64,000 nt of DNA. Origin: Alphaproteobacteria bacterium. Lineage in GTDB: Bacteria; Pseudomonadota; Alphaproteobacteria; Bin95. Numbering within the stretch: the first letter of the stretch is position 1; the number at the start of each line of letters is the position of its first letter. Location of the stretch: assembly GCA_040263875.1 (NCBI GenBank), contig JBDQJI010000002.1, forward strand, positions 18,847-82,846. The letters run 5' to 3'. Position numbers and translations under genes: made by a program. The notes beneath the pieces were generated by a model. The model ran no database searches. It was not told where the DNA came from and worked only from the letters and a program-made list of their open reading frames with translations. Shown one piece after another: positions 3,836 through 43,214 of the stretch.

Positions 3836-5080
3836 ATGAATCGCGACCAGACTTACTTCTTGCTGCTCAATATCGGGCATTTTCTTGACCACCTGTTCAT
3901 GCTGGTCTTCGCGACGGTTGCCGCATTGGCGCTGGTGCGGGAATGGGGGGTGAGCTACGCGGAGCTTTTGGCCTATGCAACGCCAGGTTTCTTCGCCTTC
4001 GGCCTGTTTTCCCTGCCTGCAGGATGGCTTGCGGACCGGTGGAGCCGGGACGGCATGATGTGCGTGTTCTTCGTTGGCATCGGCGCCACGTCAATTTTGA
4101 CCGGTATGGCGGGCTCGCCGATTGAAGTCGGCATTGGCCTCTTCGTTATCGGCGTGTTCGCGGCGATCTATCACCCGGTTGGCCTCGCCATCGTGACAAT
4201 GAAATGGAAGAATACCGGTATGCGCATCGCCATGAATGGCGTGTGGGGCAATCTGGGCGTCGCGGCGGCGGCGTTGATCACGGGCTATATGATCGACAAT
4301 GGCGGGTGGCGGATGGCGTTCATCCTGCCGGGCATATTCTCCATCCTGACAGGCATCGCCTATTACACCTTGCAGCGAGATCAAATCCGCGCAGACGGCG
4401 CCAAAGACAAAGCGGAGAAGAAGGCGGCTGCGGCGCCCTTACCGGCAGACTATAAAGCGCTGCTGATCCGGGTCTCCGCCATCGTGTTTTTAACGACGGC
4501 GGTCTCCTCCATCATCTTCCAGTCCACCACATTCGCGCTGCCGAAAATGCTGGACGAACGCCTGCAGGGCTTCGCGACACGGCTGGCGGAGATGGTTCAA
4601 CCCGTGGCGGATGGCGCGCAGGCGGATACAGCGACTGTGATCGGCATGCTGGCGTTCATTGTATTCGCAGTAGCGTCCATGGCGCAGTTGGTCGTCGGCA
4701 GTATGTTGGATAAGCACGGACCAAAGAAAGTGTTCATGACCGTCGCCGCCATCCAGATCATCTTCTTCGCCGCAATGCCTGGCTTGCAGGACGGTGTGGC
4801 GCTGGCAGTTGCGCTCGGCTTTATGCTGGGCGCGTTCGGCCAGATTCCCATCAACGATTTCATGATCGGCAAAATGGCCAGCGGCCCCGCCCGCGCGCGC
4901 ATTTACGGCGTGCGCTATGTCGTCAGCTTCACGGTCCTTGCAGCGTCCCTCCCCATGATCGCCTTCGTCCACAGCAATTGGGGCTTCGACGCACTGTTCC
5001 TCATCCTAGCTGCTGCAGCACTGGTGATCCTCGTGGCGGTGTTCACGCTGCCGAAGAAGCTGCCCGTCGCGCCTGGGTGA
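3836..5080 (+). CDS. MFS transporter
   Basis: 414 aa with about 12 TM segments; GWLADRWSR (motif A), AIYHPVG, G-x-WGNLG. Confidence 0.9.
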   Translation: MNRDQTYFLLLNIGHFLDHLFMLVFATVAALALVREWGVSYAELLAYATPGFFAFGLFSLPAGWLADRWSRDGMMCVFFVGIGATSILTGMAGSPIEVGIGLFVIGVFAAIYHPVGLAIVTMKWKNTGMRIAMNGVWGNLGVAAAALITGYMIDNGGWRMAFILPGIFSILTGIAYYTLQRDQIRADGAKDKAEKKAAAAPLPADYKALLIRVSAIVFLTTAVSSIIFQSTTFALPKMLDERLQGFATRLAEMVQPVADGAQADTATVIGMLAFIVFAVASMAQLVVGSMLDKHGPKKVFMTVAAIQIIFFAAMPGLQDGVALAVALGFMLGAFGQIPINDFMIGKMASGPARARIYGVRYVVSFTVLAASLPMIAFVHSNWGFDALFLILAAAALVILVAVFTLPKKLPVAPG

Positions 5081-5106
5081 CCGGAACCATTGCATCTGCT
5101 TCCAAG

Positions 5107-5140
5107 TCTCCTCTCCCTTTGTTTGGGGAGAGGGGATTTT
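5107..5140 (+). terminator. Hairpin/intrinsic terminator after the MFS gene (CCTCTCCC/GGGAGAGG REP-like core)
   Basis: TCTCCTCTCCC-loop-GGGAGAGGGGA followed by TTTT, between convergent genes. Confidence 0.6.
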
Positions 5141-5192
5141 CGGTCAGAACCCCTATCTTGCCGCTAATAATTCGCTCATTCGAAGCGGTGCA

Positions 5193-6083
5193 TTACCCCC
5201 GCTTATCAAGCGTCTCCAAATACACCTTGAGCGATTCCTGTACTGGCCTTGACCGGTCCCAGGTTGCCCGCGTTTCGGAGGCTAGGGGCGTGTCTTTCAG
5301 CACGTCGTAGACCCAGGCAGCGCCCTCGTGGAATTTGGGGGTTACGCCGGCGCTGGCGAGGGTGGCGGCGATTTCGTCCATTTCGGGGCCGAAGCGATGG
5401 GCGTCTGCGGCCAGGAATCCAACCCAGTTTTGCATGCCCGTGAAAGCGTGCTGATTACCGCCTTCAAGCTCATTCATCAGGGCTGGCAGCAGCTTGTAAC
5501 GCTCAGCCGCCATGCCAACGGCGGCCATCATTGCCCAGGACCCTTTGGTGAGGGAGGCGAACAGCATTTTGAGCGTTGAGGCCTGGCCGATATCTGGCCC
5601 AAGTGCGATCACTTTCATATTCGGGCGGCCAAGTAATGGCGCCACTGCCTCAGCATCCGGGCCGGAGAGATATACGCGCGGTGTCGCCAAATCCGGCGAG
5701 CGGCCAATAATGCCGCCATCCAGAACCTTAGCCCCTGCCCCCGTCACGGCCTTTGCGATCGCCGCCATCGTGATCGGCGAGATTGCGTTCAGGTCCATAT
5801 AAAGCGGCTGCCTGCCCGTGCGCGTCATGGCGGCTGCGGCATCAACAGCCGCACTCTCCGCAAACGCGGGCGGCATGATGGACATGAGGGCGCCTGCGAC
5901 AGTGATCACGCCATCCAGCGAGCCTACGTCCTCAATCCCAGCTTTCTCAGCCCGCGCGCGGCTTTCCGCACTGCGGCCGGCAAGGTCTGACACCACGCGG
6001 AACCCGCCCTCGGCCAATGTTTGGCCAACAGCCGCACCCATGTCGCCAACGCCAAGCAAGCCAATTGTTTTAATTGCGGTCAC
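5193..6083 (-). CDS. NAD(P)-dependent oxidoreductase, 3-hydroxyisobutyrate/6-PGDH-like with DUF1932-type C-terminus
   Basis: GLLGVGDMG Rossmann motif, DLNAISP, DGGIIG, ASTLKMLFASLTKG; GTG start overlaps the stop of the upstream cupin (GTGA). Confidence 0.85.
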   Translation of the reverse strand: MTAIKTIGLLGVGDMGAAVGQTLAEGGFRVVSDLAGRSAESRARAEKAGIEDVGSLDGVITVAGALMSIMPPAFAESAAVDAAAAMTRTGRQPLYMDLNAISPITMAAIAKAVTGAGAKVLDGGIIGRSPDLATPRVYLSGPDAEAVAPLLGRPNMKVIALGPDIGQASTLKMLFASLTKGSWAMMAAVGMAAERYKLLPALMNELEGGNQHAFTGMQNWVGFLAADAHRFGPEMDEIAATLASAGVTPKFHEGAAWVYDVLKDTPLASETRATWDRSRPVQESLKVYLETLDKRG

Positions 6084-6505
6084 TTATCAGTCCCTTGCAT
6101 CGGATAGCCTTCGGCATTTGTATCTTGAGCGACATATTCAACAATGCGTTCTTTGGAATGATGAATCCCAAGCAGGCGCATCGTCTTGTCCCCGGCGACG
6201 GCAAATGTGTGCGGCGTGTTTGGTGGCATGGACGCCATGTCTCCCGCTTTCATCCGTCGCTTCGCATCCTCATGGCCTTCCACCCACACATCCGCCTCGC
6301 CTTCCAGGATGAACAGCAGTTCCTCATACGGGTGCTGGTGCATTTCGGCGACGTAACCGGGTTCTGCCGTTTGAATGCCGGTGCGCACCGCCGTCGTGCC
6401 GTCGCTCATCAGCGGGTGATAGTGGGATATCGGGCTGAACTCCACGCGTTCAGATGTCTCAAGCCGCGCCAATTTAGCGCCCCGCTCCAGGTGTTCCACA
6501 GTCAT
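6080..6505 (-). CDS. Cupin domain protein
   Basis: Real start taken as ATG at 6505 (AGGAG upstream); HQHPYEE..ILEG and PPNTPHTF cupin motifs. Confidence 0.85.
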   Translation of the reverse strand: MTVEHLERGAKLARLETSERVEFSPISHYHPLMSDGTTAVRTGIQTAEPGYVAEMHQHPYEELLFILEGEADVWVEGHEDAKRRMKAGDMASMPPNTPHTFAVAGDKTMRLLGIHHSKERIVEYVAQDTNAEGYPMQGTDK

Positions 6506-6554
6506 TGCTCTGCTCCTATGCTTTGATTTCAAACATACAACGGAGCTTGAGCGG

Positions 6555-7490
6555 ATGCGAATAGCAGTGATTGGAGCAGGCGGCGTTGGCGGACCATTCG
6601 GCTCTGCCTTGGCGCGATCAGGCGAGGATGTGTGGTTTTTGGCGCGCGGCGCGCACTTGGAAGCCATGCGGAAAGACGGCTTGACCATCACCGGCGCGCG
6701 CGGCGACTTCCACCTGGACAACGTGCAAGCAACAGATAGCCCGGAGGAGATCGGCAAGGTCGATTTCGTGCTGTTCACGCCAAAGCTCTGGGACGTTGAA
6801 ACGACAGGCCTTGCGATCAAGCCGCTGCTGGATAGCCACACGGGCGTCATCACTTTGCAGAACGGCGTCGACGCGCCAGACCGCTTGGCAAGCGTGATTG
6901 GGCGCGAAGCCGTCATCCCGGGCGTCGCGGTTATCAACGCCGCCATTGAAGCGCCGGGCCGCATCCAGCAAATGGGTGAATATCAGAACCTGACCTTCGG
7001 CGAATTCGACGGGACTGAAAGCGGGCGTGTGCAAGCGCTGCTAGCGTCCTGCGAGGCGGCTGGGATTGAGGCACGAATTTCAGCCAACATCATAAAGGAT
7101 CTATGGGAAAAATTCGTATTCCTGGTCTCGGTTTCGTCCCTGACAGCCGCCAGCCGCCAGCGCATGGGCTATATCCGCACGGATCCGGACGCGCGGGCGA
7201 CACTGATGCGCCTCCTAAGCGAAGTCGCCGCCGTTGGCCGCGCCCATGGTGTACCGCTGGCCGATAATCTGGCCGAAACCCGCCTCGCCATGATTGACGG
7301 CCAAAACGCCGAAAGCATCGCCTCCATGACGATAGACCTGTTGCGAGGCAACCGCCTGGAACTGCCCTGGCTGGCAGGCAAGGCCGTAGCACTCGGCATC
7401 GAACACAATGTCGAAACGCCTGCACTTCAGGCGCTGCTTGGGGCGCTAAAGCCTTACACGATGGGGCCAGCGGAACTGCCGAAGGTATAG
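6555..7490 (+). CDS. panE: 2-dehydropantoate 2-reductase family (ApbA/PanE)
   Basis: GAGGVGG, LQNGV, WEKFVFL, SMTIDL..G.RLE motifs. Confidence 0.85.
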   Translation: MRIAVIGAGGVGGPFGSALARSGEDVWFLARGAHLEAMRKDGLTITGARGDFHLDNVQATDSPEEIGKVDFVLFTPKLWDVETTGLAIKPLLDSHTGVITLQNGVDAPDRLASVIGREAVIPGVAVINAAIEAPGRIQQMGEYQNLTFGEFDGTESGRVQALLASCEAAGIEARISANIIKDLWEKFVFLVSVSSLTAASRQRMGYIRTDPDARATLMRLLSEVAAVGRAHGVPLADNLAETRLAMIDGQNAESIASMTIDLLRGNRLELPWLAGKAVALGIEHNVETPALQALLGALKPYTMGPAELPKV

Positions 7491-35569: not shown

Positions 35570-36313
35570 CTAAGAGCTTTTCGTCTCCGTTGGCGGAGTA
35601 ATCTTCCGGTTCGGTCCAAACCGCCCCGTTTCAATCCCTGGCGCGCAGCCAAGGCCAGCAAACTTGCAGCCAGCATCTTGCAGGATGCTGAAATAGTTCT
35701 GCCGAAGCTCTAGCCGTAATCCTGTGAGCGGCTGCCTATTGGCGGATTTGCACGCGGCCCCGTCCTCTACAGCAAGCACAGCGCCATCAGCGAATGTGCA
35801 AGTCATCTGGAGGCGGTAATGATTAGTCCCAAATATGGCGACACTAACGGCGTGCAGCGGGTGCCCTGGCCCATTGGCATCATGGTCCACCGGGCAGGCC
35901 GCTTTCTCACCCGGCGGCGGCAGGATCGCTTTGGCGGGTAGGGCCAAAGTTTCCGAACACCGGAGCGCTACAGACTCACCACCCTTGGTCGCGCCCGGCC
36001 CATATTTGGCCGCACCAAATCGCACCCACACATGGTCAATGCGCGCCTGACCTGCATCGAGCAGATCGCCCGCTTCGCCCGCAACCTGCTTCAGCGGCTG
36101 GCACAATCCCGCCGCATCTTCCTTGCAGATGCGGACGCCATAATCGAGCGGTGGCGGGGCGGGCGGTAGATAAACTGCAACGCCCACCATCACCGCCGCT
36201 GCAATTGCAAGCGCAACAGAAGACTTCCACGCAATTTCAACAGCACCTGGCGTCGATAACGCCCGGATAATCGCCTTTAAGCGGCCCAAGCCAAGTAATT
36301 GACTGGCTCGCAC
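35570..36313 (-). CDS. Hypothetical membrane-anchored, Cys-rich protein
   Basis: 247 aa; one N-terminal TM segment, Pro linker, 8 Cys; starts 14 nt after the enoyl-CoA hydratase stop. Confidence 0.65.
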   Translation of the reverse strand: MRASQLLGLGRLKAIIRALSTPGAVEIAWKSSVALAIAAAVMVGVAVYLPPAPPPLDYGVRICKEDAAGLCQPLKQVAGEAGDLLDAGQARIDHVWVRFGAAKYGPGATKGGESVALRCSETLALPAKAILPPPGEKAACPVDHDANGPGHPLHAVSVAIFGTNHYRLQMTCTFADGAVLAVEDGAACKSANRQPLTGLRLELRQNYFSILQDAGCKFAGLGCAPGIETGRFGPNRKITPPTETKSS

Positions 36314-36326
36314 CCGCTTGGCTCAA

Positions 36327-37127
36327 TCAGCGACCGGTAAACGCTGGTTTCCGCTTCTCCATGAAAGCCGTCTGGCCCTCTTTGTAATCGTCGCTGGCGA
36401 AGCAAGCATCGACCATTGCGTCCAGTTTGGCAAAATCACGGTCAGCTTCATGGGCCAGTGCGGTTTGGATCGCATAATTGGCCGCAGCGATTGTGAGCGG
36501 CGCGTTTTCGGCAATCATCCCGGCATATTCACGGGTTTTGGCTTCAAGGCCATCCAACGTCGTCAAGTGATTGATCAGCCCCATGTGAAAGGCCTCTTCC
36601 GCCGAATATTTCCGGCCCGTGAAGAAAATATCCTTCGCATAGGCAGGCCCGACCAGGCTCACCAACCGCTTCATGCCAGGATAGCGATAGCCCAGCCCAA
36701 GCTTGGCTGCGGGCACAGCATAGACCGTATTATCCGCCGCAATGCGGATGTCGGCTGAGAGCGCAACCGCCAATCCACCACCAATGCAGAAGCCCTGGAT
36801 CATGGCGATCAACGGCTTGTCGAAGCTTTCGATGGCGGCGTAAGCGGCGTCGCTTGTGGCATTGTAAAGCTTGGATTGCTCTTCGCCGGTGCGCTTTTCC
36901 GCGAACTCAGAAATATCTGCGCCGGATACGAACGCCTTATCGCCAGCGCCCTTCACGACACAGCAGCGCACATCATCCCGCGCGCTCAATTCTGCGAAAA
37001 TCTTCGGGATAGCGACCCACATTTCCCACATCACGGCATTCCGCCGCTCAGGATTGTTGAACGTGACCCAACCGACGCCGTCGATCACTTCGACGATCAT
37101 CTTCTCCGTACCGAAATCAAGTTTCAT
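36327..37127 (-). CDS. Enoyl-CoA hydratase/isomerase family protein
   Basis: NNPERRNA, AFVSGADISEF, GFCIGGG, PAAKLGLGY, DYKEGQTAFMEKRKP.F.GR. Confidence 0.93.
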   Translation of the reverse strand: MKLDFGTEKMIVEVIDGVGWVTFNNPERRNAVMWEMWVAIPKIFAELSARDDVRCCVVKGAGDKAFVSGADISEFAEKRTGEEQSKLYNATSDAAYAAIESFDKPLIAMIQGFCIGGGLAVALSADIRIAADNTVYAVPAAKLGLGYRYPGMKRLVSLVGPAYAKDIFFTGRKYSAEEAFHMGLINHLTTLDGLEAKTREYAGMIAENAPLTIAAANYAIQTALAHEADRDFAKLDAMVDACFASDDYKEGQTAFMEKRKPAFTGR

Positions 37128-37151
37128 AAGCTTTTGCTTTCAATTCAGGCT

Positions 37152-38333
37152 TTATACAGCGCCGCCATCACGCAATGTCGCGATCGCTGCCGCGTCATAG
37201 CCCAAGTCTTGCAAGATTTCATCCGTATGCTCGCCTTGCTCTGGTGTGGCAGTGCGGATGGAGGATGGCGTGCGGGACATCTTGATCGCCTGGTTGACGA
37301 TCTCGAATTCACCCATGCGCGGATGCTGCAACGGCACCGCCATCTGGACATGCTGGACCTGGGCATCTGCAAAAACCTGATCCATCGAATAGATCGGGCC
37401 GCAGGGGCACCCGGCAGCGTTCAAATGGTTAATCCAATGCTCAGACGAGTTGGTGCGCGTAACGGCATCAATCGCAGCATTCATGGCTTTCCGGTTTTCA
37501 GACCGAAGCGGCCCTGTTGCGAAATCAGGATGGTCCTTCAATTCCGGCGCACCAAGCGCATCACAGAAGCGCTCGTAGATTTCCTGGCCTGCAACGGCGA
37601 TATTGACGTGGCCATCCGCCGTTTCAAACACGCCCGTCGGGATCGATGTCGGATGATCATTACCGGCTGACTTGGGCACGTCGCCATTCTTCAGGTACCG
37701 TGCCGCCTGGAAATCCAGCATCTGAATTTGCGCTTCAAGCAGTGATGTCTGCACCCACTGGCCTTTGCTGGACGCTTCCCGTTCGAGAAGGGCTAGCATG
37801 ATGCCCTGGGCGCAGAACATGCCCGCACACAAATCCGCCACCGGAATGCCGACGCGCATCGGGCCACCGCCTGCTTCGCCGGTGATGCTCATCAGGCCGC
37901 CCATGCCTTGGGCGATCTGGTCAAATCCAGGCCTGTCGGCATAAGGCCCATCCTGCCCAAAACCGGAGATTGAGCCAAGAATGATGCCCGGATTGATCTT
38001 GGCCAGGCTGTCATAATCGATCTTCAGGCGGTTCTTCACATCCGCCCGAAAGTTCTCGACCACAACATCAGCCTGCTCGATCAGCTTGTAGAAAACAGCC
38101 AAGCCTTCCGGCGCTTTCAGGTTCAGCGTGAGGGAGCGCTTGTTGCGGTGCAGGTTCTGGAAGTCAAACCCATCGCGAGCGCCGCCGAGGCCTTCTTTGC
38201 CATCAGGCGGGGCCTCAACCTTGATGACATCCGCACCCCAGTCCGCCAATTGGCGCACACATGTGGGGCCGGATCGCACCCGCGTTAAGTCCAGCACCCT
38301 GTACCGCGAAAGCGGCATACCGGTCGTCGCCAT
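37152..38333 (-). CDS. CaiB/BaiF class III CoA-transferase
   Basis: VLDLTRVRSGP, GADVIKVE, NKRSLTLNLK, ENFR, SGFGQDGPY..RPGFDQIAQ. Confidence 0.93.
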   Translation of the reverse strand: MATTGMPLSRYRVLDLTRVRSGPTCVRQLADWGADVIKVEAPPDGKEGLGGARDGFDFQNLHRNKRSLTLNLKAPEGLAVFYKLIEQADVVVENFRADVKNRLKIDYDSLAKINPGIILGSISGFGQDGPYADRPGFDQIAQGMGGLMSITGEAGGGPMRVGIPVADLCAGMFCAQGIMLALLEREASSKGQWVQTSLLEAQIQMLDFQAARYLKNGDVPKSAGNDHPTSIPTGVFETADGHVNIAVAGQEIYERFCDALGAPELKDHPDFATGPLRSENRKAMNAAIDAVTRTNSSEHWINHLNAAGCPCGPIYSMDQVFADAQVQHVQMAVPLQHPRMGEFEIVNQAIKMSRTPSSIRTATPEQGEHTDEILQDLGYDAAAIATLRDGGAV

Positions 38334-38411
38334 TGGTCTCATCCCAATTCTTGAAGTGAATTCTCAGTCCCGCAAAAGCTACTTTATGCAGGCCTCTGCG
38401 CCTAGCAGAAA

Positions 38412-38891
38412 CTAATCCGCCGTTGCATCCCGTTGCTCTTGGCTCGCCATCATACGAACAGCCTCATAGGTCAGCACGATCTCACCATTTTGATTGATCG
38501 CATCATTGCGGGTTTTGACGATGCCGCGCCCGCCTTTGCTCGTCTCGCGGACAGACAGCACCTCGACCTCGCAGTGAATGGTGTCGCCAACATTGGTCGG
38601 GCCAACGGTTTTCATGGTGGTTTCCAGCATGGCGAGGCCAGTCATCTGCATGGTGCCTTGCACCAGCAGGCCCTCGCAGAAGCAATACACCAATGCACCA
38701 GGCACGGGTCGGCCACCCTTGATGGCACCATGCCGGTCATTAAATGTTGCGTCCGTGAAGATCATCTCGACCATGCCGGTTGCGTTGATGAAGTTCACCA
38801 AATCCGCTTCCGTGATGGTGCGGTTGATGGTTTTCAGCTTATCGCCAGCTTTCAGTTCATCCCAGCCAATGCCGAGGCCCACTACGCGCAT
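38412..38891 (-). CDS. MaoC-like (R)-hydratase, hot-dog fold
   Basis: RTITEADLVNF, VPGAL, GDTIHCEVEV, NQNGE.VL.Y; start ATG 38891 with GGAGAG SD. Confidence 0.88.
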   Translation of the reverse strand: MRVVGLGIGWDELKAGDKLKTINRTITEADLVNFINATGMVEMIFTDATFNDRHGAIKGGRPVPGALVYCFCEGLLVQGTMQMTGLAMLETTMKTVGPTNVGDTIHCEVEVLSVRETSKGGRGIVKTRNDAINQNGEIVLTYEAVRMMASQEQRDATAD

Positions 38892-38939
38892 GCGTCTCTC
38901 TCCCAAAGTAGAAATATGAATAGTCAGGTCTGTGAAAAC

Positions 38940-39758
38940 TTAGAAATCGAGCGGCTCAAGCCCAAGCTGCGCCACCTTATTCAGATAGTCGCGCACCTTT
39001 CCGGCCAGTTCAATCATGTCCGCCGCTGGCATGGGCGGGTCCTCGCGCACGGCGCGGTATTGCGGCGGGTCCTCGACCTCCCAGGTCCAAAGGTCCGGCA
39101 GACAATCAGGTTGGGATACCAGGAACAACGGATAGGGGCGCCCGCGATAGACGCCCTTCAGCACCTGCTTGCCAAGATAATGAAAATGAAAGCCGTGCCG
39201 GTCCGGCATGCGCGCCAGAACTTCAGCCAGATTCATGGACATAATCACCTGGCCGAAATGCGCGTGAGGGCTTAAGCGGAACCCCAGATCAATATCGGGG
39301 CCGAGGTAATCCACGTAAGCATCCCCGCCACCCATATCCGCCATCTCACGGATTTCAATGGCGATGTTTCTATCCGGGAAGCGCGCCGCCCAAATGCAGC
39401 CGCGAATCCGCAATGGCCAGCGGTCAAACAGGCGAGCGTCATATGTCACAACGGTGCGATAAAAAGCTTCCGTCAGCAGCAGGGCTTCCTCGGCAGTACG
39501 CGGTTCCGCCTGAAACACAATCTCATCGCCGATGACCTTCCAGACAGAAACTTCAGGCACACTTTCGGCTTCAAGAAACGCCTGTGCCACCTGGCCCATC
39601 AACACCAGCGGCAGTTCTTTGAAATAGGTCTCGAACGCTTCCAACCAGCCGGGCCTGCCATCCTTTGGGCCAGTGATATCTTTGAAATTGGTGGAACCCG
39701 CCAGATCAACCGACATGAATAGCAGCGTGCGTGGGCGGGAAAGGTCCATAGCGGTCAT
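38940..39758 (-). CDS. Stand-alone divergent class III nucleotidyl cyclase-like protein
   Basis: LFMSVDLAGST, WKVIGDEIVF, DYLGPDIDLGFRL and LKGV align in order with the class III cyclase motifs F.D..GFT, K..GD, G..VN.A.RL and LKG. Confidence 0.7.
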   Translation of the reverse strand: MTAMDLSRPRTLLFMSVDLAGSTNFKDITGPKDGRPGWLEAFETYFKELPLVLMGQVAQAFLEAESVPEVSVWKVIGDEIVFQAEPRTAEEALLLTEAFYRTVVTYDARLFDRWPLRIRGCIWAARFPDRNIAIEIREMADMGGGDAYVDYLGPDIDLGFRLSPHAHFGQVIMSMNLAEVLARMPDRHGFHFHYLGKQVLKGVYRGRPYPLFLVSQPDCLPDLWTWEVEDPPQYRAVREDPPMPAADMIELAGKVRDYLNKVAQLGLEPLDF

Positions 39759-39772
39759 CAGGGTCTGCCCAG

Positions 39773-40102
39773 TCAGCCAGTCAACGCTTCAGCGCGGGAT
39801 GGGAAGACTGGCAAAATGGCGGTGAAGCCCGAAATATCAAACACATCCCGCACCATTGGCGAGAGATTACACATCCGCACCTGCCCACCCAGCGGCTGCA
39901 CCTTCTTCGCCGCGACCAATAAAATCCGCAATCCCGCACTGCTGATATACGCCAGCTCCTGGCAATCCACGACCAGCGTCGTCGCACCATCCGCAATCGC
40001 TTGATCCAGCACAGTCTGAGCATCCGGCGCAGTCACGGTATCCAGGCTCCCAGCGATCTCGACGACCGTTCCCGCCTCTTCAGCCGCAACCGTGATGTCC
40101 AT
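39773..40102 (-). CDS. STAS domain anti-sigma factor antagonist (SpoIIAA/RsbV-like)
   Basis: 109 aa; GSLDTVTAP, VVD...L.YISSAGLRILL, V..VFDISGF; AGGAG SD. Confidence 0.92.
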   Translation of the reverse strand: MDITVAAEEAGTVVEIAGSLDTVTAPDAQTVLDQAIADGATTLVVDCQELAYISSAGLRILLVAAKKVQPLGGQVRMCNLSPMVRDVFDISGFTAILPVFPSRAEALTG

Positions 40103-40347
40103 GCTATCTCGCTCCTGCTCGCCTAAACCGCTTGGCAGCCAGTATCATAGGTCATAACACCAGCCGCTTGAACCGCCGTTTTTAGAGAACCTGTAAACCT
40201 TACCCATCGTGCTGATGACGCCGCGAACACCTGAGTAGAAAATGAAAGCTGGCGGCACTATTCTAGGCCCGACAGACGACACCCCGCCCACGCGGGAGCT
40301 CTTACTATGAAGAAAACATCCTTCCTAAACGCCGGAGCACTTCCCCT

Positions 40348-41589
40348 ATGTCCCGTATGAAATTTGGCGCGTTTTTGGCGCCGCATCATCCTATTGGTGA
40401 GCATCCGATGCTGCAGTACCGGTCTGATCTGGACCTGGTGGAGCGGCTGGACCAGCTGGGCTTTGATGAGTTTTGGTGCGGCGAACATCATTCTACCGGG
40501 TGGGAGACCATCGCCTCGCCGGAGATGTTCCTGGCAGCTGCCGGTGAGCGTACCCACCGCATCCGGCTTGGTACGGGCGTTGTCTCGCTGCCCTACCATC
40601 ACCCGTTCATTGTGGCCCAGCGCATGGTGCAGTTGGATCACATGACCGGCGGGCGGGCGATGTTTGGCTCTGGCCCTGGCGCTTTGCCGTCAGACGCCTA
40701 TGTCCTCGGCATTGACCCCGTGACCCAGCGCGACCGGCAGGATGAAGCGCTTGGTGTGATCCAGCGCTTGCTGCGCGGTGATGAGCGGTTCAGCCACAAG
40801 TCAGACTGGTTCACCCTGAATGACGCTGGCCTGCACCTGTTGCCCTTACAAGAAGAGTTGCCGTTCGCTGTCGCCAGCATGGTCAGCCCATCGGGCATGA
40901 CGCTGGCCGGCAAATACAATACCGGCGTGCTGTCCATCGGCTCCATGTCATCTGCCGGGCTGAATGCGTTGCCAACGCAATGGTCATTTGCGGAGGAATC
41001 TGCCGAGAAGCACGGTAATGCCGTGGACCGCAAGAACTGGCGAATCATCCTGCAATGGCACCTGGCGGAAACCCGTGAGCAGGCGATTGAGCAGTGCAAG
41101 GACGGCCTGTTCCATTGGCATAACGAATATAATGTCGGCACACTGCAACGGCCCGGCGTCGGCCCCTTCGCGACCCCCCATGAGGGCGTTGAGAAAATGG
41201 CATTTTCTGAAGGTGCAACCGCAGTTATCGGCACACCGGACGATCTGATCAAACGCCTGCGGGACCTGATTGAACTGACAGGCGGATACGGCGTCACAGT
41301 TGGGTTCGTGCACGATTGGGCCAACCGCGAAAACACCATGAAGAGCTGGGACTTGGTGATGCGCTATGTAGCACCCGAGCTGAACGGCATGCTCGACGCC
41401 TACCGGAAATCCCGAGAACACGTCGTGGCGCACCGGGATAGTTTTGCGGATGCACAGCAGGGCATTCTCAACAAAATCATGGAAAACCCCCGTGCCGCTG
41501 CGGCCCTGAAAGATACCAAAGTCGGCGTCGCCGCCGCCCTTGGTCCGCACGCAGGGCCTGATTTAGCAAAGGCTGCCAAAGATAGCTGA
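40348..41589 (+). CDS. LLM class flavin-dependent monooxygenase (limonene 1,2-monooxygenase LimB-like)
   Basis: FGAFLAPHH, GEHHSTGWETIASPE, GTGVVSLPYHHP, GPGALPSDA. Confidence 0.88.
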   Translation: MSRMKFGAFLAPHHPIGEHPMLQYRSDLDLVERLDQLGFDEFWCGEHHSTGWETIASPEMFLAAAGERTHRIRLGTGVVSLPYHHPFIVAQRMVQLDHMTGGRAMFGSGPGALPSDAYVLGIDPVTQRDRQDEALGVIQRLLRGDERFSHKSDWFTLNDAGLHLLPLQEELPFAVASMVSPSGMTLAGKYNTGVLSIGSMSSAGLNALPTQWSFAEESAEKHGNAVDRKNWRIILQWHLAETREQAIEQCKDGLFHWHNEYNVGTLQRPGVGPFATPHEGVEKMAFSEGATAVIGTPDDLIKRLRDLIELTGGYGVTVGFVHDWANRENTMKSWDLVMRYVAPELNGMLDAYRKSREHVVAHRDSFADAQQGILNKIMENPRAAAALKDTKVGVAAALGPHAGPDLAKAAKDS

Positions 41590-41590
41590 C

Positions 41591-42073
41591 CTATTCCGGC
41601 AGCGGCAGCGCCGTTACCGGTTTAATGGTTTCCATGGACAGGCTGGAGGATACGGTGTGAATGCCGATGCGCTCTATCAGGCGCCGGTAGAAGGCGTCAA
41701 ACGCGCGGGTGCTGGGCACTTGGACCTTCAGCAAATAATCCTCCGCACCGGCCAGGCGATGCGCTTCGGTGATTTCACGCATGTCTTGAATGGCAGCGCT
41801 GAAGGCGTTTAGCCATTCCGCTTCGTGGCGATCTGTGCGGACGGATACAAAAAATGTCTCCGCGACGCCGGCTTTTTCAGGGTCCAGCAGGGCTGCGTAG
41901 CGGCGGATCAGGCCCGTCTGCTCATAACGTTTGACGCGGTTCCACACGGCGGTGCGGGACGAGCCCGCGTCTTTGGCGATGGTTTCCAATCCTGCACGCG
42001 CATCTTGTTGCAGCGCGTTGAGGATACGGAAATCGAGCGGCTTCAGGTCGTCACTTAGCGGGATATCAGACAT
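41591..42073 (-). CDS. Lrp/AsnC family transcriptional regulator
   Basis: D.RIL..LQ.DAR, W.RVKR.E..G.I, HRLAG..DYLLKV, SSSLSME.IK. Confidence 0.93.
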   Translation of the reverse strand: MSDIPLSDDLKPLDFRILNALQQDARAGLETIAKDAGSSRTAVWNRVKRYEQTGLIRRYAALLDPEKAGVAETFFVSVRTDRHEAEWLNAFSAAIQDMREITEAHRLAGAEDYLLKVQVPSTRAFDAFYRRLIERIGIHTVSSSLSMETIKPVTALPLPE

Positions 42074-42167
42074 AGATGGGAATCTCCAGAAACGTGAAAT
42101 ATGTTCACGCTTTCTGCTGATTTACGCCTAAACCGGAATAATTTCCAGCTCTGGTTTCTTCTGATGC

Positions 42168-43214
42168 CTATGCCGCTGTCTTAAATCCATCAAACGCCAC
42201 TGGTGTCGCTCGCAGTTTGGCAATCAGGTCTTTGTGCAAATCGGGATCGATATCATCCGGCAAATCCAGGCGGAGCGTGTCCACAACGCCGCCAAATCGC
42301 TCGGCGACGGCAGCGGGCAATTCATCATATGTGCCGACAGCGGCGAACAGGCGAACCACGTCATCTGACACCTGTGCCGCAAGCTCATTCCACTTGCCTT
42401 CCTTCGACATCTGGTGGAGCTTCAAGCCAAGCTCTTCCAGGCCATGCTGCTCAAATACCGGTAAGTATGTACGCGTAGAGCCATAGAAACCAACCCGGTA
42501 GCGCACCCAATCCAACTTCTCAGCAACAGCTTGCTCATCCGCACCTGTGGCAACGAACCCACCGCCTGAAATCTCGAAAGATGCGCGGTCCCGGCCACTG
42601 CGCGCCATGCCTTCCTCGACCTTCGGCATACACACATTTTCGATGTATTTCCGTGTGCAAAAGCCATGCAGGCGCGCGCCATCAGCGATCCGCCCCGCCA
42701 TTCGAAGCATATCCGGGCCAACAGCAGCCACGGTCAGCGGCGGCAGGCGGAGGCCCGATTTCGGTGGGGAGAATTCCGGCGTCATTAGGGTGAAGCTGTA
42801 GTGTTCGCCTTCAAAGTTCAGCTTTTCGCCGTGCTCCCAAGCGTTCCAGATTGCCCGGATCGCCTGCATATATTCCCGCATCCGGGCGACGGGCGCGACC
42901 CAGGGTGTCGAGAACCGGCGTTCATTATGACCTTTGACCTGGGTGCCAAGGCCGAATTCAAACCGCCCACCCGTCTGCGCATTCAAATCCCACCCCATAT
43001 TGGCAGCGATCATCGGGCTTCGCGGAAACGCCACGGCGATGGAGGTGCCAAGCGCTACACGGTTTGTGGAATGGCCAGCAATCGCCAAAGGCATGAAGGG
43101 GTCATGTGCGAGTTCAGACGTGGTGACGCCATCATAGCCAATGCCTTCCGCCCACTTGGCGCGGGTCCCCGCGCGGTTCCAATTGTCAGTGGGCAGTTGG
43201 CAGACAATACGCAT
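42168..43214 (-). CDS. LLM oxidoreductase, probable F420-dependent TIGR03617-like family
   Basis: E.AHDPF, AVAFPRSP, GLGTQVKGHNERRFS, RMREY..AIRAIW, TLMTPEF, FYGSTRTY. Confidence 0.85.
   Translation of the reverse strand: MRIVCQLPTDNWNRAGTRAKWAEGIGYDGVTTSELAHDPFMPLAIAGHSTNRVALGTSIAVAFPRSPMIAANMGWDLNAQTGGRFEFGLGTQVKGHNERRFSTPWVAPVARMREYMQAIRAIWNAWEHGEKLNFEGEHYSFTLMTPEFSPPKSGLRLPPLTVAAVGPDMLRMAGRIADGARLHGFCTRKYIENVCMPKVEEGMARSGRDRASFEISGGGFVATGADEQAVAEKLDWVRYRVGFYGSTRTYLPVFEQHGLEELGLKLHQMSKEGKWNELAAQVSDDVVRLFAAVGTYDELPAAVAERFGGVVDTLRLDLPDDIDPDLHKDLIAKLRATPVAFDGFKTAA

Follow-up and report, generated by a model that had tools for sequence, protein, structure and literature searches.

A STAS antagonist gene beside a class III-like nucleotidyl cyclase gene in an alphaproteobacterial genome: a candidate partner switch with a cyclase as its output

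Partner switching is usually taught as a means of freeing a sigma factor. What, then, does a STAS antagonist switch when the gene next to its own codes for a protein resembling a nucleotidyl cyclase? The question is raised by two genes in a stretch of 64,000 nucleotides (nt) from the genome of an alphaproteobacterium (assembly GCA_040263875.1, contig C2:18847-82846), referred to below as the window. Both genes are located on the minus strand: the STAS gene (40102..39773) codes for 109 amino acids (aa), and the cyclase-like gene, here called cyc (39758..38940), codes for 272 aa. A preliminary description of this DNA had read them as two co-directional genes 14 nt apart and had proposed that the STAS protein may gate the cyclase instead of a sigma factor. 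In the sequence, 14 nt (39759..39772, minus strand) indeed separate the stop codon of the STAS gene from the start codon of cyc, both open reading frames being on the minus strand. The proposal is supported in silico by the predicted fold of the cyc product, its conserved catalytic set, the linkage of cyc with genes of partner switches in other genomes, and a model of the STAS-cyclase contact that was run against controls. We consider it moderately probable that the STAS protein and the cyc product represent the switch and the output arm of a partner switch whose output is a nucleotide cyclase, not a sigma factor.

Judged by its sequence, the 109-aa protein is a textbook STAS antagonist of the SpoIIAA/RsbV type, with matches to Pfam STAS (9.3e-21) and to the anti-sigma factor antagonist family TIGR00377 (1.3e-24). 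The phospho-acceptor motif YISSAGLR, which had been described as retained, is present at residues 52-59 (39926..39949, minus strand), in agreement with the codons. Its Ser55 is the presumed phospho-acceptor, which we take to be equivalent to Ser58 of SpoIIAA. Among 15 STAS proteins encoded near cyc-family genes, Ser55, Gly57, Leu58 and Arg59 are invariant. The protein is therefore of the kind found in partner switches, a single STAS domain with a conserved phospho-acceptor Ser.

The fold of the 272-aa protein was predicted with AlphaFold2 from 37 homologues (pLDDT 90.3, pTM 0.90), and the model has the beta-alpha-alpha-beta-beta-alpha-beta core of the cyclase homology domain. A structure search for such a fold, proposed in the preliminary description, was performed with Foldseek against the PDB and returned 188 matches at E<=1e-3; at their head are CyaC (the best match, E 2.8e-10), CyaB, Rv1900c and soluble guanylate cyclase. 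Re-alignment to CyaB (3r5g) with VIA gave Z 17.1 and a root-mean-square deviation (rmsd) of 2.5 Å over 184 residues. All 50 structural matches listed are class III adenylyl or guanylyl cyclases, spanning model residues 1-221. The rest of the protein is a C-terminal extension past the cyclase core (residues 222-272; 38943..39095, minus strand), with a helix at residues 245-263 in the model; this extension is absent from cyanobacterial members of 204-219 aa, and most structural matches stop near residue 221. Pfam shows neither a sensor nor any other domain in the 272-aa protein, in line with the absence of a sensor domain noted before, and a search for longer, fused forms gave none, which is weak evidence.

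Other assignments of the protein were also considered. The GGDEF domain profile (PF00990) has no match in it, the corresponding motif being IGDEI, and GGDEF structures are missing from the 50 matches listed, which does not exclude distant kinship. The mCpol/Panoptes enzymes, weighed as an alternative family, are likewise not found among these 50, and this too is no exclusion. PADLOC gave no defence-system match for either protein, except for a chance-level match to SspH. At the sequence level, hhalign of a 144-sequence family alignment against the nine PF00211 domains encoded in the same genome produced an alignment of 177 columns at E 1.2e-4, while phmmer and hmmsearch against PDB sequences found only Rv1264 (E 0.19-0.43), amid unrelated matches. 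Such thin sequence evidence explains why the protein has remained without annotation.

The catalytic residues were placed by profile-profile alignment to the nine PF00211 domains, and their conservation was counted in 144 relatives. Their positions in the secondary structure of the model agree with the canonical topology, and all five motifs named in the preliminary description were found, in the order given there; the four with coordinates below are read on the minus strand. SVDLAGST (residues 16-23; 39690..39713) aligns to FADIVGFT and contains Asp18 at the position of the first metal-binding Asp; this residue is conserved in 144/144 relatives, and the model places it where strand beta1 ends. 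WKVIGDE (residues 73-79; 39522..39542) aligns to DKxIGDA and carries Lys74 at the purine-specifying position (Lys in 132 and Arg in 12 of the 144), Asp78 at that of the second metal-binding Asp (143/144) and Glu79 (139/144). In the segment RGCIWAARFP..N (residues 119-131), Arg119 occupies the position of the phosphate-binding Arg on strand beta4, with Lys or Arg in 141/144. The motif DYLGPDIDLGFRL (residues 150-162; 39273..39311) comprises the adenine-specifying position 150 (Asp or Glu in 144/144), Asp157 in place of the canonical Asn, and Arg161 at the position of the transition-state Arg, the latter two both in 144/144. Finally, LKGV (residues 200-203; 39150..39161), aligned to vKGk, contains Lys201 at the position of the gamma-phosphate Lys of beta7-beta8 (Lys or Arg in 139/144) and Gly202 (143/144). 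The role of Asp150 is our assignment, made by the 7-residue spacing before position 157, as between Asp1018 and Asn1025 of mammalian adenylyl cyclase. That Asp stands at the Asn position with the Arg kept, another point of the preliminary description, follows from two alignments that agree with each other, that to the canonical domains and that to Rv1264, in which DWFGSPVNVASRV aligns with DYLGPDIDLGFRL in the phmmer/hmmsearch comparison.

Class III cyclases form head-to-tail dimers whose active sites lie at the interface. The base is specified in them by Lys paired with Asp or Thr for ATP, and by Glu paired with Cys for GTP. The metal-binding Asp pair, the base-specifying pair and the phosphate-binding Arg and Lys are all found in the cyc product. 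It is called here class III-like, not a full member, because the PF00211 profile does not match it and the Asn of the transition-state Asn-x3-Arg pair of helix alpha4 is replaced, only Arg161 being kept. Conservation of the other catalytic positions argues for an active enzyme that uses ATP as substrate, and with the Lys/Asp adenine pair retained, plain cyclic AMP (cAMP) synthesis would be the default expectation.

The family also has invariant residues of its own, Lys26, Glu79, Trp123 and Asn131, which together with the Asp at the Asn position in 144/144 relatives invite a different explanation: the protein has a cyclase fold, yet it is not a cyclic nucleoside monophosphate (cNMP) cyclase. 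It would instead make another nucleotide product, for which a linear or cyclic oligonucleotide, a 2',3'-cNMP or a pyrimidine cNMP are candidates, or act as a non-catalytic adaptor. The four residues have no PF00211 counterpart, and the GDE that contains Glu79 recalls GGDEF; the failure of PF00211 to detect the family, and the fusion of distant members to NUDIX-like or HD/PDE-like domains, indicative of nucleotide chemistry, point the same way. A pseudoenzyme is, however, hard to reconcile with the retention of all other class III catalytic positions, including the Lys/Asp pair, and the closest structures among the matches listed are adenylyl and guanylyl cyclases, not GGDEF or Cas10-type enzymes. 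This explanation is regarded as rather unlikely.

The preliminary description had stated that an RsbW kinase, an RsbU phosphatase and a sigma factor are missing from the window, and this holds: the matches of the genome (4.05 Mb, 99.9% complete) to the HATPase_c_2, SpoIIE and Sigma70_r2 profiles are all on other contigs, and none of the 8 Sigma70_r2 genes that could provide a sigma factor as output lies in the window. The genome encodes a single stand-alone RsbW-like kinase (145 aa, contig C114) and a single SpoIIE-type PP2C phosphatase, the 705-aa CHASE2-SpoIIE protein of contig C160, along with three small STAS proteins, nine canonical PF00211 cyclases and one copy of the cyc family. Both the RsbW-type kinase and the SpoIIE/RsbU-type PP2C of a partner switch are thus present in the genome, outside the window. 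The C114 kinase is 31-42% identical to cyclase-linked kinases elsewhere, and the PP2C domain of the C160 protein is 41-46% identical to cyclase-adjacent PP2Cs, which is consistent with the two being dispersed partners of the STAS-cyc pair. Since kinase and PP2C genes are located elsewhere in this genome and beside cyc in its relatives, the pair would be the output arm of a full partner switch. The pair is accordingly not a self-contained two-gene system, although the checks proposed in the preliminary description favour its core idea.

The neighbourhoods of these genes in the source genome (contigs C160, C41 and C114; loci L087, L089, L090 and L080) show further associations. The CHASE2-SpoIIE gene of C160 is located downstream of the second STAS gene and of a gene for a metallo-beta-lactamase-fold protein. 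The third STAS gene lies beside thiolase and ChsH2-type genes, and the RsbW-like kinase gene of C114 adjoins msrA and a gene for a STAS-like domain fused to an MlaE permease.

Whether cyc genes keep such company in other bacteria was surveyed in 79 loci from reference genomes, with 5 kb of flank fetched, scanned with local hidden Markov models built from Pfam-verified examples and confirmed with Pfam on a sample. The survey had also been suggested in the preliminary description. In the family proper, which comprises 58 loci (L001-L058), a gene for a STAS protein, an RsbW-type HATPase_c_2 kinase or a SpoIIE-type PP2C lies within 5 kb of cyc in 51, weakly in L004 and L008, and these genes recur across phyla; none was found at the 21 most distant loci. 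Sigma-70-family genes were detected in 2/79 loci by phmmer with 7 sigma proteins, a search of limited sensitivity. In a quick maximum-likelihood tree of 78 rows, from which L074 and L079 were dropped as too short, the partner-switch-linked loci form one clade of 59 rows (SH-aLRT 81) with members from Alpha- and Gammaproteobacteria, Acidimicrobiia, Planctomycetota, Verrucomicrobiota, Gemmatimonadota and Cyanobacteriota. The order of genes differs between lineages, which argues against simple inherited synteny.

The recurrence in 51/58 loci makes the pairing of STAS and cyc more than chance. In a genome with three genes for small STAS proteins and nine canonical cyclases (PF00211), an ordinary STAS gene could have come to lie next to an ordinary divergent adenylyl cyclase gene by accident, but the linkage to partner-switch genes across phyla in varied gene orders, a complex model that passes its controls and an interface patch specific to the linked clade (see below) leave this explanation disfavoured and hardly credible.

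The arrangements at the individual loci are diverse. A PP2C gene adjoins cyc in about 40 related loci, and a STAS orthologue does so in L001, L002, L005, L006, L009, L010, L011 and L047. In L005 and L009, a gene for a fusion of ammonium-transporter, GAF, PAS, SpoIIE and kinase domains is followed by STAS and cyc; the ammonium-transporter domain suggests nitrogen sensing as one input. In L006 and L047 the order is a gene for a REC-Hpt or HK-REC-Hpt protein, a REC gene (L047 only), a gene for a REC-SpoIIE-HATPase_c_2 protein, STAS and cyc. The order cyc, kinase, STAS is found in L015 and L027, and a kinase-STAS fusion gene followed by cyc in L024 and L031. In 33 loci of Sphingomonadales, Phenylobacterium and related bacteria, cyc lies beside a convergent HAMP-SpoIIE gene. 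Loci of this kind appeared at first to have a PP2C only; a STAS and kinase pair was, in fact, found in 5/5 sampled genomes of this 'PP2C-only' group, and in 3/3 fetched cases it lies on the same contig about 5-6 kb beyond the PP2C gene.

Several of these loci have features of their own. The proteins encoded directly upstream of STAS at L005:70-3495 and L009:159-4427 are very large single-chain inputs with several PAS domains. L056, from a metagenome-assembled genome of Synechococcaceae, contains the pair of SpoIIE-kinase fusion and cyc twice in 7.4 kb (82-2449 and 4097-6722); both cyc copies score identically, and a STAS gene follows. A cluster of about 9 kb is common to Sphingomonadales and Phenylobacterium (L103, at G001:C22:224500-235000, L104 and L105). 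It starts with cyc, the convergent HAMP-SpoIIE gene and a gene for a protein of 830-890 aa with weak MFS/TLC-transporter and HEAT matches, and continues with genes for a HAMP protein (about 430 aa), two proteins with no match in Pfam, a STAS protein and an RsbW-like kinase.

A direct contact between the two proteins was modelled, as the preliminary description had recommended, with two copies of the cyclase and one STAS protein, each with its alignment, and the STAS partner was scored. Three runs gave ipSAE 0.63, 0.66 and 0.70, against 0.01 for the best of three controls; the control of STAS with an unrelated 272-aa protein gave 0.00. The pass mark is reached by 58/80 solved complexes and 2/110 mismatched pairs, counts that apply here only approximately, as the present models were run with three chains and with alignments of our own making. 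At least 88% of contacts are common to the runs, and the partner pLDDT is at least 88. On the STAS side the predicted interface comprises residues 22, 54-56, 58-59, 62-63, 66, 87, 90-93 and 96, that is, the face of Ser55. On the cyclase side it comprises residues 47-48, 50-55, 57-59, 61-62, 65-67 and 69-71, located in helix alpha2 and the alpha2-beta2 loop (PLVLMGQVA..F; residues 47-71; 39546..39620, minus strand). This loop leads into the beta2-beta3 hairpin holding Lys74 and Asp78. The PLxxxGQ patch, scored by Pro50 and Gly55, is present in 53/59 rows of the linked clade versus 0/19 distant rows, in which the alpha2 segment is unrelated and shorter. Such clade-specific conservation independently supports the predicted interface. 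In mammalian adenylyl cyclases, helix alpha2 is the docking site of G-alpha subunits.

Taken together, these data allow the following scheme to be proposed. The RsbW-like kinase of C114 would phosphorylate Ser55 of the STAS protein, and the CHASE2-SpoIIE PP2C of C160 would dephosphorylate it on a cue from the envelope or from outside the cell. Once unphosphorylated, the STAS protein would use its Ser55 face to dock on the cyclase, at helix alpha2 and the alpha2-beta2 loop, and would alter the activity of the enzyme, which by analogy with SiaC and SiaD could mean activation. The contact would be lost when Ser55 is phosphorylated or when the kinase captures the STAS protein. ATP is the probable substrate and cAMP the probable product, with the universal Asp157 leaving room for another product.

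A number of points weigh against this scheme. Gating of the cyclase activity by the STAS protein is a computational prediction, and its sign cannot be inferred, because in a related system HsbA binds its cyclase in the phosphorylated form. At the level of the enzyme, the canonical transition-state Asn is replaced by Asp157 family-wide, no Pfam, NCBIfam or PADLOC family matches the 272-aa protein at E<=1, so that PF00211 is blind to it, the alignment of 37 sequences failed against the nine canonical domains in hhalign (E 0.11 local, 0.74 global), and the match probability with 144 sequences was just 54%. At the level of the genome, the genes for kinase and phosphatase lie on contigs other than that of the window and owe their assignment solely to being the only copies, and 7/58 loci have no partner-switch gene within 5 kb (L013, L016, L033, L057 and L058, and also L003 and L055, which are truncated at contig ends). 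The score of the complex is a measure of model confidence, and as the Ser55 face is known from STAS-kinase complexes, familiarity of the predictor with that face could have contributed to it; the 0.00 obtained for STAS with the unrelated 272-aa protein speaks against this. Lastly, the kinase gene directly follows cyc in L012, L015 and L027, and a SpoIIE-kinase fusion gene directly precedes it in the cyanobacterial loci L053 and L056, arrangements that fit a kinase binding the output equally well.

These last arrangements bear on the main rival to STAS docking, according to which the RsbW-like kinase binds the cyclase directly and holds it inactive, while the STAS protein merely pulls the kinase away, on the pattern of RsbV-RsbW-SigB. 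The cyclase would then take the place of the sigma factor also in the gene order, cyc standing where the sigma gene would be and sigma genes being found in only 2/79 loci, and the kinase-STAS fusion that precedes cyc in L024 and L031 can be read in the same sense. It is, however, STAS that is the immediate neighbour of cyc in the window and in the loci, listed above, with an adjoining STAS orthologue, and the complex model sets the STAS protein directly on the conserved, clade-specific patch of the cyclase. Kinase sequestration is considered unlikely; the two models are not mutually exclusive.

Downstream of cyc, on the minus strand, are located a MaoC/FAS1-dehydratase-like gene (38906..38412), a family III CoA-transferase gene (38342..37152) and an enoyl-CoA hydratase gene (37127..36327). 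The distance from cyc to the MaoC-like gene is 33 nt if translation of the latter begins at a TTG and 48 nt if it begins at the first ATG, close to the 50 nt or so given before. Upstream, the divergent intergenic region between the STAS gene and a luciferase-like monooxygenase gene (40103..40347) is presumed, by position only, to contain the promoter. No match to the sigma-70 consensus promoter was found in 36000-40500, and terminator-like sites in the same interval occur at chance frequency. Farther upstream, at 40348-43214 of the window, are the luciferase-like monooxygenase genes 40348..41589 (plus strand) and 43214..42168 (minus strand), with a gene for an AsnC/Lrp-family regulator (42073..41591) between them.

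Contigs from metatranscriptome (RNA) libraries span most of 36300-40400. One contig, X15 record 7, is near-identical, with 9 differences over 758 nt; it spans 39235-39992, that is, the 5' half of cyc, the spacer and most of the STAS gene. Records 30 and 31 of X18, from a relative about 91% identical, bridge MaoC to cyc and cyc to STAS. X16 record 15, from a near-identical strain, which runs from MaoC into cyc, was considered as a bridge and discounted, as it reaches merely 15 nt inside cyc. Contigs from RNA libraries cannot prove a single transcript and may stem from DNA carry-over, so that they are weak evidence; they are compatible with transcription and co-transcription of the locus, proving neither.

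Could the STAS-cyc pair then be a local regulator of the acyl-CoA genes, co-transcribed with them? The shared strand, gaps of 33-69 nt, the same gene order in L001-L004 and the bridging X18 records 30 and 31 are in line with this, as is the location of another STAS paralogue of the genome beside thiolase and ChsH2 genes. The acyl-CoA genes, however, accompany the pair only in these close relatives (L001-L004; 84-97% identity) and do not lie beside cyc at other loci, and the contigs prove no single transcript, DNA being possible in RNA libraries. The link to the MaoC, CoA-transferase and hydratase genes is not a trait of the cyc family, and a local-regulator role is very improbable.

The cyc family itself is large. 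A full HMMER scan of 1.84 billion representatives yielded 1923 clusters at E<=1e-3; with the limit at E<=1e-10 the number is 1480. The 169 close homologues, 260-280 aa long, are mostly without a name, two being labelled 'class 3 adenylate cyclase' by JGI; none of 40 sampled relatives has a Pfam match on its cyclase-like part at E<=0.1. In the ESM Atlas the protein is found among clusters automatically named 'adenylate cyclase, class 3 family protein', which have no common Pfam family. Its distribution among relatives is patchy: cyc was detected in 5/9 other genomes of the same genus, in 0/9 genomes of other genera of the taxonomic family and in 0/12 of other families of the class. Cultured carriers are Sphingopyxis witflariensis DSM 14551, Phenylobacterium kunshanense BUT-10 and Pseudomarimonas salicorniae CAU 1642. 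In G007, a genome of the same genus, the cyc orthologue (C5:152866-153612) contains an in-frame TAG stop, and in L004 the open reading frame carrying cyc also scores weakly for STAS, which suggests that the cyc copy is disrupted or frame-shifted in this lineage.

A distant clade of cyc genes (genome loci L059-L078 and viral contigs L106-L113) codes for proteins of mostly 440-560 aa with 23-30% identity, from Bacillota, Spirochaetota, Fibrobacterota, Patescibacteria and other hosts. In 15/21 genome loci and 7/8 viral contigs the gene directly follows a gene for an ImmA/IrrE protein (Peptidase_M78), and the two may form a prophage-borne signalling or defence pair. L077 and L078 have a weak NUDIX-like C-terminal domain, and in L060 and L062 AAA_14-DUF4143 and DNA methylase genes follow. 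In the 521-aa protein P0153 a cyclase-like N-terminus is fused to an HD-type domain weakly similar to PDEase_I (E 0.0018), a fusion that hints at the handling of cyclic nucleotides by the cyc family.

A wider reading of these data can be offered, tentative and doubtful as it is: the 272-aa protein could be the first example of an unrecognised branch of class III enzymes (about 1900 clusters, no Pfam model), marked by GDE and GxxxDxGFR with Asp for the catalytic Asn, of which one large clade was recruited in at least five phyla as the dedicated output of partner switches in the sigma factor's stead, with the phospho-face of the STAS protein on alpha2, and a sister clade is carried by prophages together with ImmA-type proteases and NUDIX domains. 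Its product may be other than 3',5'-cAMP.

If the narrower proposal of a STAS-gated cyclase is true, Ser/Thr phospho-switching would be tied directly to class III, probably cAMP, signalling in many environmental bacteria, a large family missed by domain databases would acquire a function, and nature would have provided a test of the role of the conserved Asn in cyclase catalysis. The hypothesis concerns two small soluble proteins and is directly testable.

To our knowledge, the second-messenger exceptions to sigma factor control by partner switching, namely SiaABCD, HsbA-HsbD and stressosome-linked cyclases, all use GGDEF enzymes. Control of GGDEF diguanylate cyclases by partner switches and stressosomes is documented in several reports (PMC5085249, PMC6482189, PMC7647112). 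Full-text searches, which leave most subscription journals and supplements uncovered, found no literature in which a class III cyclase is coupled to a STAS partner switch; the matches inspected concerned the two-hybrid use of Bordetella adenylate cyclase or GGDEF cyclases, and the word 'cyclase' is absent from a STAS review (PMC8256260). What is new in the present system is the candidate output of its partner switch, a class III-like cyclase from a family that is not catalogued. How it relates to known systems can be outlined as follows.

SiaC of Pseudomonas aeruginosa belongs to a separate STAS-like family, not to PF01740. The SiaABCD system resembles the one proposed here in being a partner switch with a nucleotide cyclase as output and no sigma factor. 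According to PMC7647112, the phosphatase SiaA and the kinase SiaB set the phosphorylation of SiaC on Thr68, and SiaC, unphosphorylated when activating, binds and activates the diguanylate cyclase SiaD. SiaD, however, is a GGDEF enzyme that makes cyclic di-GMP, whereas the cyc product has a class III fold and adenine-type residues, and the switch protein in the window is a STAS protein of PF01740 whose acceptor is Ser instead of Thr68.

The HptB-HsbR-HsbA-HsbD pathway of the same species is matched by the gene order of L006 and L047. HsbR combines Rec, PP2C and kinase/anti-sigma domains, and its target is the STAS protein HsbA (PMC6482189); phosphorylated HsbA binds HsbD, a cyclase encoded nearby (PMC5085249, PMC6482189). 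Unlike the cyc product, HsbD is a GGDEF diguanylate cyclase, bound by the phosphorylated antagonist, and the kinase and phosphatase joined in HsbR are separate proteins encoded elsewhere in the genome from which the window comes.

Canonical class III cyclases (CyaB 3r5g, Rv1900c 1ybu, CyaC 1wc1) are similar to the model of the cyc product at Z 16-17 and an rmsd of 2.1-2.6 Å over 163-184 residues, with the metal-binding Asp pair, the Lys/Asp pair, the phosphate-binding Arg and Lys and the transition-state Arg in the same places. The cyc family differs from them in being undetected by PF00211, in the Asp for Asn of all 144 relatives, in its GDE motif and invariant Lys26, Trp123 and Asn131, in a long conserved helix alpha2 and, for the 272-aa protein, in the 50-residue C-terminal extension. 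From GGDEF cyclases the 272-aa protein is set apart by its alpha4 motif GxxxDxGFR, which aligns with class III cyclases. A PP2C phosphatase associated with a class III cyclase is also known from the fungal adenylyl cyclases Cyr1/Cac1, in which, according to PMC12710969, the PP2C domain is on the same polypeptide; these are eukaryotic fusion proteins with no STAS or kinase partner.

Overall, the components of the proposed system, a phospho-Ser STAS protein, an RsbW-type kinase and a SpoIIE-type PP2C, resemble those of the RsbU-RsbV-RsbW-SigB and SpoIIE-SpoIIAA-SpoIIAB-SigF systems of Bacillus. Unlike these, the module described here has no sigma gene, and the predicted partner of its STAS protein is an enzyme.

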